DNA of 64,000 nt from a virus (IMGVR_UViG_3300033463_000039:53994-117993), one strand, 5' to 3'. Shown: positions 1-61,985, counted from the first letter of the stretch. The notes: generated from the sequence alone by a model not told the origin. Program-made: numbers and translations.

Positions 1-3000
1 TCCATATTACATTTGCACTTCCATGATAAGAATTCCATCTTCCACTATAATATCCCATATCAAGATCAATTCTTAACATTTCTCCTACTTGCATACTAGA
101 ATAATCTACCGTTCTAACAAGTGGAGAACTTGTATCACTACTTCCAGAATGATTTAATATTACAGTTTCTTCAGTTGTAAAACCAACTGTAATTGAATTT
201 CCATTAACTCCTACTATTGTATATTGATATCTATTTTGACCTATTACAATTTCTCCTACTTTTGGAGTTGTATCAGGTCCAATTAATTGACTTCTTAAAT
301 ATATATTATTTGAAGGAGCAACGGTTGCTGCTCATACTGAAGCACCAGCTTCGCCATCAGAGCCTTCTAATTTAAACCATGTATAATCACCTGGGTTAAT
401 AGAATCTTCTTCTGTTGTATCTACATACGTTCCCATAAATTCACTAGGAGTTTTTGTCATTTGACTAAAACTTGAAGGATTTATTACATCTGAGTAATAA
501 TAGTGAAAATATGATGAATCTCCTGCTTCACCTTGAGTTCCTCTTAATCCTAAATTTATATTAAATTGTTGAACTTGCGTTCAAGTAACATTATTACTAT
601 CTGTATAACTAAATGTCGCAGTAATTAAATTTGTAATATTCTCTATTGCTTTTGTTGAATCTGCAGTTATTACCATATTTTTATTATTTACACTTCAATA
701 ATAACTTAAATTTGTTATTGATGAAGGACTAAATGTACAAGTAACACCTGTAACATCAACATTTTTAAATTTTGGATAACATTGAATTGTATATTGTTTA
801 TTTTCACTTGGATGATGATTTGTTTCTGAAGGTATTGTTATATTATTTGTAATTGGATTCATTTGTAAAAATGAAGTTGCATTATCCAAGTCTGTAATTT
901 CTTGTTGCACTGTTCTTTGTGAACCTGATGTCATATATAATTGAGTAGCAACAACTTTACCATTCTGATCAATAGAAAAGTTACCATTTCCTCAATCTAT
1001 ACTTGGCGCAGATAAGTTGATCTGCATACCAGTTCCCGCAGTAGTATCATAATTACCAGATGTTAAAATTGCTTGATTTGTACTTGGATCAATTACTATT
1101 TGTCCGGATCCAGTTTTTCCAAATCTAGCTGAACCATCACTAGCATCTAAAGCTATAGTTCTTTCTCCAGAACTATATCCAAATAAACCTGTTTCAATCT
1201 CTTGCCCAGTTTCTTCTATACTTCCTAAAAATACTCCTGTAAATGAATTGTCTTGTTCTTTTCTACCTGCTCCAACCTGAGGAGATAAAATTAAACCTTC
1301 ATCTTCATTTATTTGAATACTATTTCCATTTCAATCATTCATTAAAGCATTACTATATTTATTTAAATAAAGATGAATAGGAATTTGAATTGAACCCATA
1401 CTTGATACAGTACAAGTTATTCCATTATTTACACATAAACCATTAAATTCATCAACAGGCTTGTAATATTTTTGATTATTATTTAAAACTTGTCCATAAG
1501 TTTTTCTTAATTCTATATTAGACTCATCTTGTCAACCATTTATATATGTACTACCATAAATTTCCCATGTGTAAGTAGAAGTTCCGCTTACATCTGCAGT
1601 TCCATTTAAAGTAACTATTTCAAAAGGTTGATTATTATCATACTGAGGATATCTTCCATCAGTTGAATATATTGCATAGCGGAAGCCGCTATTTTTCTTT
1701 AGTTTTAATGTATAATTACTATTTGAAACTCTTGATACTATAACTGGCATTGTATCATAATAAGTCATACCATCATAAGTTACATTACATCTTACTATGT
1801 TTGCGGGGTCTGTATACTGTGTCCCGTCAAATGTTACAGCACCGGTTGCCGCATTTATATTTAAGTTAGAATCTTCTGTAATAACAACAGAAGATTGATT
1901 TTTTGTATATCTATTTTTTAATATACTCCAAGAAACATCTACATCTTTGAAATTTCCTTCATCATCTTGCTCAATATTAGAAACTCCTGAAGTAACATCT
2001 TCAAAAATTTTAATTCCATCATGTCATAATTGAACTTTAAACCATAAGTTTTGACTTACTGGAGTATAATTTAAGCTATAAGTTCCTGCGGCAGTATTAT
2101 AAGTTACCATTGGATAATCATTTAATTCTCCTGTCGCAATATTTGGAATTATTTTACAAATAAAATCTGTACCATTAGTTCCAGATTCACCTTCTTTTAT
2201 AAAAGATAAATTACTTTCTGCTTGATAAGAAACCCCTTCATAATCTATTTTTAATTTAATATTATTATCACTAGCATTTATATCATATTTTGTAGCAATC
2301 TCATACCCTAAAGAATAAATATTTGTATAAACATAATGTCCATCTTCTACTGTTGGAGTCCCATAAGAACTAGGTATAATTATCATAGTATCTGTCATAG
2401 GAACTATCCATTTAATTGCTGAGCCTGGAATTCCACTTTGAGGAATCTCCGCACCTAAATCATCATATAAAGTAAATGTTAATGGCAATAGAGTAATAGG
2501 ATTATCTAATGATTTATTATTTGGCGCAATTCCTTTTTCATTATATTTATAAACTTGAACTCCATTATTTATTACTAAATTATATTCTTGAGCCTTTTCT
2601 AATGAATTATATAATATAATAGAACCAGTTCCAATATAATTTCCGCTATACCAAACTGAACATTTATAAACTGTATAATTTATAATTTCATTTACTGCTA
2701 CATTTTCATAATTTTTACTTGTAGTATTTAAATCTTTAAAGCTTCCATAACAATCAATAGCAGCTCATGAATAAGTATAATTTGTATCAGTTTGAGAAGT
2801 TCCATTTATTAAACATGATAAATCTGTATTTCCTACATCAAAATAAAATTGAGTTCCATTACTTGATGCTATTGTTATATTATAACTAGAACTTAAATTA
2901 TATATAATAACTTCTTTTTCTAATATTGTATCATTATTATATACAGCTACACATTTATATTTATTTTCTTTTGCTAAATTATCTTGTTTAGCTACTGAAA

Positions 3001-4123
3001 TTTCATTTCCTGCACTATTTCATTCAATTAATAAATTATTTGGATCTGTTTGATCAATTATATTATATTCATTTAAACATTCCCAACCAGAACCACCTAA
3101 TTTATTATACTTTTCTGAATGAATTGTAATTCCTACATTTTCTTTAAACCAATAGTAAGAAAGATTAGCAAAATCATCACTTGCGGCCTTGCCTTTTACA
3201 CGAACTTGAGCTTGTATCTTCCTTATATCGGTTGCCGCACTTTGATTATCAAAATAAATTCCTTGAGGTGTTATTAATGATAATCCACAACTTGTTAATT
3301 CTTCTTCTGGAATTAAATCTGCAGAATAAATTTGAACATTTTTTACAAATATATCATCTTCTTTTCCTGTTGCTGTGTGAGGAAAATTATTTGAAAAAAT
3401 TTGTATTTGATCTATAGATTGAAATTTTAATCCATCTATTTCATAAGCACTAATTTGTTTAGTAAAATTTACTAAATTATATGGATTTCCGTTCATATTA
3501 TCAATATCAATAATAAAGTCCCTTTCTACAGGCTCTCCTGCCTCATCTGCATATGTAGTTTTAAAAGAAATCCCATAATTTCCTCTAAATTTTTGTTCTA
3601 AAGGTAAATTAGTTTTAAAATAAGCACCTAATAATAATGCAGTACCATTTTTAATATATAATTCTGCGGCATCCGCATTATAATCTATTAAATTTATATT
3701 ATTATCAGCATCATATAAAATTACCGAGTCTCCACCCGATTGATAAGAGCATAATCCAAAGACATCTTCAGATTGAGCTATATTATTACCTATTATATTA
3801 TATCTATTTTCTACAGAAATATTATTAATATAATCTGTTCCTAAGCTGTCAACAGTACCAATGATAGTTTTATTACTTGCCATATTATTGCCTGGAACAA
3901 GAACATAAACTAAACTGCCAACAGAATAAGTAACATCTGTTGAAGTAGAATAAGCATAAAAAGCACTATCTTGAAATTTTACCTTATACTTGCCAATTGC
4001 GGCATCTTGTACTTTTAAAATAGTACATTGAATAGTTTTATCGTAGTCAGCATTTTGAACCGCATGATCAACAAGGCTTTGGATTGTGTCAAGAATTTGT
4101 TTCTCATAATTTGTTGCACTCAT
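1..4123 (-). CDS. Giant tail/host-specificity protein, >1370 aa, runs off window start (code 4)
   Basis: Track ORFs 3020-4123, 2024-2488, 1532-1768 and 695-934 share one frame and each ends at TGA; reading TGA=Trp gives one ORF directly after the tape measure, with tail-fibre-like GTYVD..DS..P.DYTW motif. Confidence 0.8.
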
Positions 4124-59674: not shown

Positions 59675-61985
59675 TGATTTATTAAGTGAGTTAAGTACAA
59701 ATTTTATCGAATATGCAGTTGCGGTTAACTCGGATCGTGCGATTCCAGATGCGACAAGTGGATTAAAACCCGTTGCCCGCAGATTATTATGAGGAGCTTT
59801 TGAAAAAGGATATACTTCTTCTAAACCTCATGTAAAATCAGCAAAAATAGTTGGAGATGTAATGGGAACATATCACCCTCATGGAGATTCATCAATATAT
59901 GGAGCTCTTGTAAGACTATCTCAACCTTGGGCTATGAGATATCCACTTATCGATTGGCATGGCTCTAATGGTAATATAGATGGAGATGGACCTGCGGCAA
60001 TGCGTTATACAGAGTCTAGATTATCAAAACTTGCAGAAGATGGAATGTTAAAAGGAATAAAGAAAAGAAATGTTGATTTTATTCCTAATTATTCAGAAGA
60101 TTGTGAAGAACCAGTAACATTACCTGCAATATTTCCTAATTTATTATGTAATCCAAATACAGGTATTGGTGTTGCTATGGCTTGTAATTTTGCTCCACAT
60201 AATCTAAAAGAAGTTGCTCAAGCAATATATGATTTTATGGATGATAAAGAACCAATATTACCTGGTCCTGATTTTCCAACTGGCGGAATTATCATTAATA
60301 AAAATGATATTCCAATGATAATGAAAACTGGACATGGGAGCGTAAAAGTTAGAGCTAAATATAAAACAGAAAAACAAAATTTAGTATTTTATGAAATTCC
60401 TTATGGAACGAATACTGAAGATTTAATTGCGGAAATTGGCAAAATTGCAGAAGAAGAAATTTCAGAAATAGTTAATATTAGAAATGAAAGTAATAAAAAA
60501 GGATTAAGAATAGTTATAGAATGTAAAAAAGATACTAATCCAGAAGCAATAGCAAATAAACTTTTCTTAAAAACAAATTTACAAACAAGTTTTTCATATA
60601 ATCAAGTTGCTTTAATAAATAAAACTCCAACAGAAGTAAATTTAAGAGATTGTATTGAAATATACTTAGAACATAATATAAAATGTTTAATTAAAGAAGT
60701 TAATTTTGATTTAAGAGCTGCGGATGCCCGCTATGAAATTGTAGATGGTTTATTAAAAGCTTTAGAAGATATTGATAATATTATTGCTTTTATTAAAAAA
60801 TCTGAATCTAGCACCGCCGCAAAAGAAGGATTAATTAAAACATATAAATTTACTGAAAATCAAGCAAAATCAATTGTAGCTATGAGATTAGGTTCTCTTG
60901 CTAAATTAGAGAAAATAGAATTAAATAACGAAAAAAATGAATTAATAAAAAATATAGAAGAATTTAAAAGTATTTTAATTTCTTCAGAAAAACAAAAAGG
61001 AATAATTAGACAAAGATTGTCTGATCTTGTTAAAAAATATGGAGATGAGAGAAGAACTGAATTAACTCAAATTGATATTCCAAAAGAAGAAAAAGAAATA
61101 ATTACAGTAGTTCCTGAAGATGTAGTAGTTATGGTCTCAAAATCTGGAGATGTTAAACGAATTCCAAAATCTAGTTTTAGAGCACAAAGAAGAAATGGAA
61201 AAGGAATAAAATCTGAAGAAGATGCTATCTTAACTTCTATAAAAACTAATACTATTGATAATTTGTTAATTTTTACTAATAAAGGAAAAATGTATAAAAT
61301 ATTAGTTGATAAATTACCAATAGGAACAAATGCTTCTAAAGGGCAAAATATAGCTAGTTTAATAGAGATGGAAACAAATGAAAAAGTTGTTGCGGCGGCC
61401 AGCCTTAACAGGGATCTAGACGAGGATTATGTTGTCTTTATCACAAAGCAAGGATTGGTAAAGAAAACTTTATTAGAAGAATATACTTCTATTAAGAAAT
61501 CTACTGGAACGCAAGCAATAAAACTTAAAGATGGAGATTCTATTGTTGATATTTTATTCATGAAAGAAGAAGATTTAATATTGTTTTCAAAAGAAGGAAT
61601 GATAATTAGATTTATAACTAATGATATTAATCCAATAGGCAGAGTAACATCTGGAGTGAAAGGAATTAAATTAAATGAAAATGACTATATAGTTAAAGGT
61701 ATTCCTATTACAAATAAAAATGCAACAATTGCAATAGTAGATATAAATGGATATGGGAAAAAATGTAAGTTAGATGAATTTGTTATTCAAGGTAGAGGTG
61801 GAAAAGGTTTAAAAACAGGTTGCAAAATTGCTGGAGCAGAATTAGTAACAGATGAGGATAACTTATTATTAATAGGAAAACCAAATAGTATATGTATTTC
61901 TGCAACAGAATTAGTTACACAAGGTAGAAATACAATAGGTACAAAATTAGCAAAAAATAATATAAATAAAGTTGTAAAAATATAG
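59664..61985 (+). CDS. gyrA: DNA gyrase subunit A (code 4)
   Basis: True start 59664: DRAIPDATSGLKPVARRLL-W(TGA 59790)-G, KSAKIVG, YHPHGD, AAMRYTE, GyrA-box-like QRRNGKG. Confidence 0.93.

Follow-up and report, generated by a model that had tools for sequence, protein, structure and literature searches.

The stretch of DNA analysed here (the window) is 64,000 nucleotides (nt) long and makes up the right-hand part of one IMG/VR virus record of 117,993 bp (IMGVR_UViG_3300033463_000039, positions 53994–117993), which belongs to a tailed phage of the cattle gut. Our analysis reveals that about half of the genes of this phage use TGA to encode tryptophan; these are virion, tail and lysis genes together with several genes of nucleotide metabolism and replication. 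We consider it very probable that this recoding is driven by the phage through its own tRNA with the anticodon UCA, hereafter tRNA(UCA), and that the early genes are kept in the standard code. The tRNA(UCA) is not an ordinary tRNA-Trp and carries a second anticodon-like arm.

Long open reading frames (ORFs; at least 100 amino acids (aa)) cover 0.53 of the whole record under code 11, 0.83 when TGA is read as sense and 0.57 when TAG is read as sense; code 15 and TAA as a sense codon bring no real gain in coverage and were rejected for the record. The big genes of the window, including TMP, the giant tail protein, TerL, portal and GyrA, are fragmented in code 11 and joined in code 4 (TGA = Trp). 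TGA as a sense codon is needed by TMP, portal, TerL, GyrA, the M23 peptidase and the SH3/SLT-like lysin, and NrdD is joined as well. A preliminary description of the window had proposed that in-frame TGA codons unite the ORFs into full genes, and this comparison of coding density across codes bears it out. The motifs SWWPEE, WWFGHFH, AGWYGGYG and KGWY, in which it had placed TGA at Trp, are all present with TGA as the W codon. From its list of joined genes, domains were found in TMP, portal, TerL, GyrA, M23 and the SLT-like lysin, but the protease has no family match; the Hsp20 domain is present as well, but lies downstream of the single TGA of its gene. Its remark that genes end in TAA or TAG holds for all 141 ORFs of our greedy code-4 gene set (112 TAA and 29 TAG), an outcome fixed by the way in which the set is constructed. 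This set contains 200 in-frame TGG codons and 238 in-frame TGA codons, the latter number being an upper bound that includes some frame artefacts, for example the three codons closest to the C terminus in the GyrB ORF. Overall, TGA makes up 55% of the Trp codons of the record and is present in 63 of 128 genes.

The residue encoded by TGA was assessed in 52 IMG/VR loci fetched by TerL (60–83% identity) and in four whole relatives. At the TGA sites of the record, the 648 aligned cells of the 52 loci hold TGG 424 times, TGA 114 times and TAT 34 times, GGN codons being rare, and the codon profile at the TGG sites of the record is the same. Since TGG or TGA fills 83% of the aligned cells, TGA encodes Trp and not Gly, as the preliminary description had claimed. 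Of the 238 TGA sites, 151 are covered by the four whole relatives, which show TGG or TGA at 109 of these, and G008, a relative without sense TGA, has TGG at 44 of 73 aligned sites. In the standard-code Enterococcus phage H1, W is the commonest partner of TGA (15 of 60 sites) and Gly appears once among the 60. Alignment of TGA to Gly, named in the preliminary description as evidence that would speak against Trp, is therefore rare in both comparisons. These same two observations rule out a code-25 phage (TGA = Gly) of an Absconditabacteria or Gracilibacteria host. Against solved structures, the five TGA sites of NrdD align to F, I, V, F and F, and TGA codon 43 of GyrA aligns to Tyr. The remaining TGA sites lie partly in lineage-specific tail proteins, and others are frame artefacts.

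The early/middle block of the window (Table 1) is depleted of TGA, with a TGA:TGG ratio of 21:66 compared with 217:134 elsewhere (Fisher p=3e-10). The 21 TGA codons of this block lie mostly in doubtful ORFs, and two of its genes, for a metallophosphoesterase and the M23 peptidase, are clearly recoded. The genes free of TGA include those for DnaB, an AAA_24 ATPase, the RpoD-like sigma factor and the major capsid protein (MCP). The recoded genes include NrdD (5 TGA), RecJ (4), DnaE (3) and a glycosyl/methyl-transferase (11), in addition to tail, packaging and wall-hydrolase genes. A similar depletion is found in the early genes of the relative G003 (p=0.001). The early block thus avoids TGA and is readable by an unmodified host ribosome.

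The tRNA(UCA) is the sole UGA-reading tRNA of the record. Its fold comprises a 7-bp acceptor stem with A1–U72 and G73, an encoded CCA end, a D arm, an anticodon loop CUUCAAA and a T arm, and is extended before the T arm by an extra 6-bp arm. The loop of this extra arm, CUCCAAA, reproduces that of the anticodon arm in the adjacent tRNA-Trp(CCA). The identity set of bacterial tRNA-Trp consists of G73, A1–U72 and the anticodon CCA; in tRNA(UCA), G73 and A1–U72 are present, the decoding anticodon is UCA and the CCA loop is displayed on the extra arm. The selenocysteine label given by ARAGORN was rejected on the basis of the 7-bp acceptor stem in the minimum free energy fold and of the position of TGA sites at Trp; bacterial tRNA-Sec has an 8-bp acceptor stem.

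We searched for further two-armed tRNAs with a looser pattern, which gave at least 114 matches, four of them real, and then with a tighter one, which returned 17 viral-contig loci and, together with the tRNA(UCA) of the record, 15 distinct sequences. In the alignment of these sequences, 97% of the cells pair, compensatory changes occur in 14 of the 27 pairs, and A1–U72 and G73 are invariant. Four of the six pairs of the extra arm covary, the remaining two being fixed by the search pattern. The two-armed tRNA(UCA) occurs in four of the six large TGA-using relatives checked, two of the four being complete or nearly so; the two without it are 70–74% complete. No copy of it was found in three near-complete relatives whose Trp sites lack TGA. 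The preliminary description had cited the UCA tRNA at 52149 in support of the recoding, and this tRNA is indeed conserved and, among the large relatives checked, confined to those that use TGA. The gene is intact in G004 and G006. In G003 (C1:106284–106979) and G005 (C1:96544–97267), an insert of ~600 nt separates U34 of the tRNA from C35, with the upstream tRNA half ending in U and the insert ending in G, as in group I introns, and both split genes are missed by ARAGORN. Such a group-I-like insert at the anticodon could bear on the timing of the code switch.

A parallel arrangement is seen in TAG-recoded relatives. G008 (GC content 41%) has an ORF coverage of 0.68 in code 11 and of 0.89 in code 15 and is thus TAG-recoded. 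It encodes a 97-nt tRNA with the anticodon CUA (C1:26731–26827, minus strand) whose extra-arm loop, CUCUGAA, shows the Gln anticodon CUG. A 91-nt tRNA(CUA) with the same CUG-showing extra arm is present in phAss-1 (OQ749652.1; L221:1491–1581, minus strand), and a pattern search for tRNAs combining CUA with a CUG arm gave 26 distinct sequences in 86 IMG/VR viral loci. The partners of TAG in a clean gene set of G008 are Q (16), E (15) and K (15) among 105 sites, the tally over all ORFs being noisy, which weakly suggests that TAG may be read as Gln in this genome; for phAss-1, TAG to Gln has been assigned by its authors (PMC10607447). Nothing relevant on tRNAs that have two anticodon arms was found in a search of the literature, and the theta-ribozyme paper is silent on the extra arm. 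We tentatively suggest, at somewhat less than even likelihood, that the two-armed suppressor is a general design in which a second hairpin copies the anticodon loop of the normal tRNA (CCA of Trp in the UCA tRNA and CUG of Gln in the CUA tRNA), so that host tryptophanyl-tRNA synthetase (TrpRS) and GlnRS, both of which read the anticodon, might accept the altered tRNA. Such a design, if true, would account for the ability of these phages to do without their own synthetase.

The record carries the wall-directed domains LysM, M23, SH3_3 and SLT/Apf-like. Of the GenBank phages related through TerL, 147 have a named host, in every case one of the walled Bacillota, in line with the preliminary description, which had argued for a walled host from such domains. 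The GenBank matches of TerL and MCP have hosts in Enterococcus, Geobacillus, Alicyclobacillus, Bacillus, Lactococcus, Clostridium and Clostridioides, and also include gut metagenome records. Within the clade, L039 and L050 read as code 11 and other members recode TAG; in a TAG-recoded member, TGA ends 59 of 170 genes. The wall-directed domains, the anaerobic NrdD, the RpoD-type sigma factor and an OLE-like RNA point to a peptidoglycan-bearing Bacillota host. The OLE-like RNA is flanked by tRNA-Thr and tRNA-Gln within the tRNA array of the phage, and the OLE family is, to our knowledge, confined to Bacillota. A shortened phage copy of this RNA seems unusual in itself. Mycoplasmatales are devoid of a cell wall. 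A Codetta survey from 2026, which covered 42,109 genomes of bacteria, lists the reading of UGA as Trp for Mycoplasmatales, for a small number of endosymbionts and for a single family of Patescibacteria only, and for no walled Bacillota (PMC13092985). From the wall domains, the hosts of the relatives, the TGA depletion of the early block, the codes of the clade and this survey, we infer a walled host with the standard code.

Domain searches of the whole record for RF-1, PCRF and class-Ib synthetase (tRNA-synt_1b) found none, and we accordingly found no gene for release factor 1 (RF1), release factor 2 (RF2) or TrpRS; the possibility raised in the preliminary description, that RF1 or TrpRS is encoded elsewhere in the genome, was thus not borne out. 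We propose that the early genes, including the RpoD-like sigma factor, would be translated in the standard code of the host, and that the phage tRNA(UCA), whose gene is present, would then be expressed, probably from its own promoter. Charging with Trp by the host TrpRS is proposed because the phage has no TrpRS gene; A1–U72 and G73 are in place for this step, and the CCA-loop arm may substitute for the altered anticodon. Once charged, tRNA(UCA) would outcompete RF2 at UGA, and the recoded genes would be completed only after this switch. The sigma-factor-like gene at the head of the late operon itself holds TGA codons, and late transcription may itself depend on the code switch.

If the host itself read UGA as Trp, the phage would merely follow the code of its host. 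The high TGA share, spread over half of the genes with replication included, and the fact that no TGA stop can be demonstrated in the record favour this explanation, but it offers no reason for the early block to avoid TGA. It also conflicts with the LysM, M23, SH3_3 and SLT-like domains, as the only Bacillota that read UGA as Trp are Mycoplasmatales (PMC13092985), with the code-11 and TAG-recoded members of the clade, in which TGA is a stop, and with the walled Bacillota hosts of every named-host TerL relative. A code-4 host is therefore quite unlikely. Near-cognate readthrough of TGA by a phage or host tRNA-Trp(CCA), with tRNA(UCA) accessory or non-functional, is in our view very unlikely. 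A phage tRNA-Trp(CCA) does lie 11 nt from tRNA(UCA), and tRNA-Trp(CCA) variants able to read UGA are known (PMC13092985), yet the anticodon stem of the phage tRNA-Trp(CCA) has the normal 5 bp rather than the 4-bp form linked to UGA reading, and the 20–21 TGA codons of single proteins demand efficient decoding. The tRNA(UCA) is moreover conserved, covaries in every helix and is found only in TGA-using relatives. Borges et al. (10.1101/2021.08.26.457843) detected a UCA tRNA in just 35% of code-4 phage genomes; an intron-like insert hides the tRNA(UCA) in two of our relatives, which explains low detection rates of this kind. That TGA specifies another residue (Gly as in code 25, selenocysteine, or Ser through a long-arm tRNA), or that the interrupted frames are pseudogenes or assembly errors, is extremely improbable. 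Apart from the ARAGORN label, the long extra arm does resemble those of class II tRNAs, but TGG or TGA fills 83% of the aligned cells, Gly is rare and Ser is not among the top partners, and the acceptor stem lacks the eighth base pair of bacterial tRNA-Sec. Decay or assembly errors are ruled out by more than 100 sites that are kept open in many independent contigs.

Phage-driven recoding on a standard-code host, as put forward in the preliminary description, is thus supported by the early-block depletion, the clade members that stop at TGA and the phage tRNA(UCA). Several observations weigh against it. Replication and nucleotide-metabolism genes are recoded too, and a simple gate on late genes only does not fit. 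With more than half of the Trp codons being TGA, and 20–21 of them in single proteins, suppression must be nearly complete; no gene acting against RF2 was found, no search having been aimed at a specific RF2-blocking protein. The promoter before tRNA(UCA) is a consensus match, of a kind found at 11 sites compared with 6.6 expected in shuffled sequences. Finally, when bacterial genomes were scanned with the lysin, only its shared C-terminal hydrolase domain was matched (in Arthrobacter, Sinomonas and Bifidobacterium), and these genera reflect the peptide patterns used, not the host.

TGA recoding itself is already published for phages of this type, in a study that is said to have appeared later in Nat Microbiol (2022), and the record fits the class in every respect tested. 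In the preprint version of that study, the TGA-recoded Agate phages are ~127 kb in size and come from the cattle gut (Borges et al., bioRxiv 10.1101/2021.08.26.457843). Likened by description, the record matches the Agate phages in size (~120–130 kb), habitat (guts of cattle or other animals), code (TGA = Trp, at low GC content) and host phylum (a predicted Firmicutes host with the standard code). In both cases, near relatives either keep code 11 or recode TAG, the recoded structural and lysis modules are scattered across the genome, and the lineage contains group I introns; some genomes have a suppressor tRNA(UCA), and neither TrpRS nor RF1 is reported for the Agate clade. The record differs in that NrdD, RecJ, DnaE and GyrA are recoded, whereas the Agate maps show replication genes in the standard code, and an extra arm of the tRNA is not mentioned in the passages of the preprint searched. 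Recoded replication genes and two-armed suppressor tRNAs thus go beyond the study of Borges et al.

The Jade phages described in the same study also read TGA as Trp, have a Firmicutes host and carry a suppressor tRNA adjoining lysis genes. RF1 and TrpRS are reported there only in two Jade phages (Borges et al., 10.1101/2021.08.26.457843), as a code-change operon; by comparison, the record has neither gene. The published phage phAss-1 (proposed Phassvirus, PMC10607447) shares 52% identity with the record in MCP and 43% in TerL, and resembles it in gut origin, stop-codon recoding, suppressor tRNAs, the lack of a synthetase of its own and the suggested Clostridia host (PMC10607447). It differs in recoding TAG to Gln, in its human gut source, in its genome size of 136 kb and in its 36 tRNAs. 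Mycoplasmatales and their phages likewise read UGA as Trp via a tRNA-Trp(UCA). There, in contrast, the host itself is recoded and wall-less, while the early genes of the record avoid TGA, wall hydrolases are carried and the kin infect walled Bacillota.

The kin of the record are large Bacillota siphoviruses and the TAG-recoded phAss-1 group. Its GC content is 28.5%, and it encodes 8 tRNAs compared with 24–31 in the relatives. The first ~134 nt (1–134) recur at the far end (117859–117993) with one mismatch; on account of this terminal repeat, the ~117.9-kb record is probably a complete genome, despite its database class as linear with a CheckV completeness of 78%. The two best-matching public runs, both from one sample, carry a bovine gut metagenome label and contain ~0.75 of the sampled words; runs with a word share below 0.2 were excluded as evidence of habitat.

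The share of TGA among Trp codons in four clade genomes is 16% (G006), 32%, 41% and 55% (the record) and rises as GC content falls, which is consistent with TGG drifting to TGA after a suppressor tRNA has become available. Together with the cousins that use code 11 or recode TAG, this graded series offers a good system in which to study the spread of a code change. The record is a heavily recoded addition to the published class, with replication and nucleotide-metabolism genes included, and the two-armed Trp and Gln tRNAs provide a testable handle on the charging of suppressors by host synthetases. For annotation, the standard code leaves half of the genes of the phage as fragments, and pieces of this kind seem to have entered PHROG as families in some cases. 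In this regard, phrog_15503 (245 positions) and phrog_24618 (230 positions) correspond to the N- and C-terminal halves of TerL, and phrog_3314 is matched by two adjoining ORFs on the minus strand (26734–27588 and 27551–28069). These families look as if they derived from the pieces into which code 11 breaks the genes of recoded phages, or as if the gene were shifted.

Table 1. Positions in the window of the genes, RNAs and signals considered in this study
Feature	Position	Strand	Remarks
Late structural and packaging block	1..29143	-	read with TGA = Trp
Giant tail protein	2-4123, continues upstream of the window	-	2369 aa, 21 TGA
TMP	4246-12618	-	2790 aa, 20 TGA; PhageMin_Tail and LysM
Major capsid gene (MCP)	19830-20867	-	0 TGA, 4 TGG
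Portal	22874-24481	-	family match
TerL	24996-26753	-	family match; 2 TGA
Sigma-factor-like gene, head of late operon	28075-28695	-	phrog_5767 'sigma factor'; 2 TGA
Early/middle block, sparing of TGA	29907..51707	unspecified	RpoD-like sigma factor, small genes, tRNA array, OLE-like RNA
RpoD-like sigma factor	39637-40482	-	0 TGA; 304 bits to RpoD model
Metallophosphoesterase	42491-43120		early block; 6 TGA
tmRNA match (RF00023)	46524-46623	-	100 nt, 54.3 bits vs gathering score 47, model positions 1-374
M23 peptidoglycan endopeptidase	46724..47854	-	TGA codons 292 and 302 lie within the Pfam domain (residues 275-370)
OLE RNA 3' core (RF01071)	47892-48096	-	205 nt, 106.7 bits, model positions 279-595 of 616
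Ordinary tRNA-Trp(CCA)	52064..52137	-	74 nt; 11 nt downstream of tRNA(UCA)
tRNA(UCA), candidate TGA decoder	52149..52244	-	96 nt; ARAGORN label SeC
Sigma-70-like promoter TTGATT-17-TATAAT	52322-52294	-	pattern match; between lysin gene and tRNA(UCA)
Terminator-like hairpin	52414-52388	-	pattern match; between lysin gene and tRNA(UCA)
Cell-wall hydrolase (lysin)	52467..53183	-	SH3_3 and SLT/aggregation-promoting-factor-like C-terminal domain; 7 TGA, 4 supported by relatives
GyrB	57835-59529	+	family match
GyrA	59664-61985	+	family match; N-terminal region needs TGA at codon 43

Other features of the window were also noted. The homology of GyrB to solved structures stops after RMKGL, where the ORF continues with RR and KGLGEM is expected, and a 61-aa ORF follows in another frame (59489–59674). 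Within the GyrB ORF, the three C-terminal TGA codons come after this break in homology and are probably out of frame. The gene for an NAD-dependent ligase is likewise split (62306–63289 and 63300–63998). The tmRNA match lies just downstream of the M23 gene, at a site where ARAGORN predicts no tmRNA. In addition, the tRNA array contains an ORF-free stretch of ~0.9 kb (50397–51239), in which no Rfam family reaches its gathering score.

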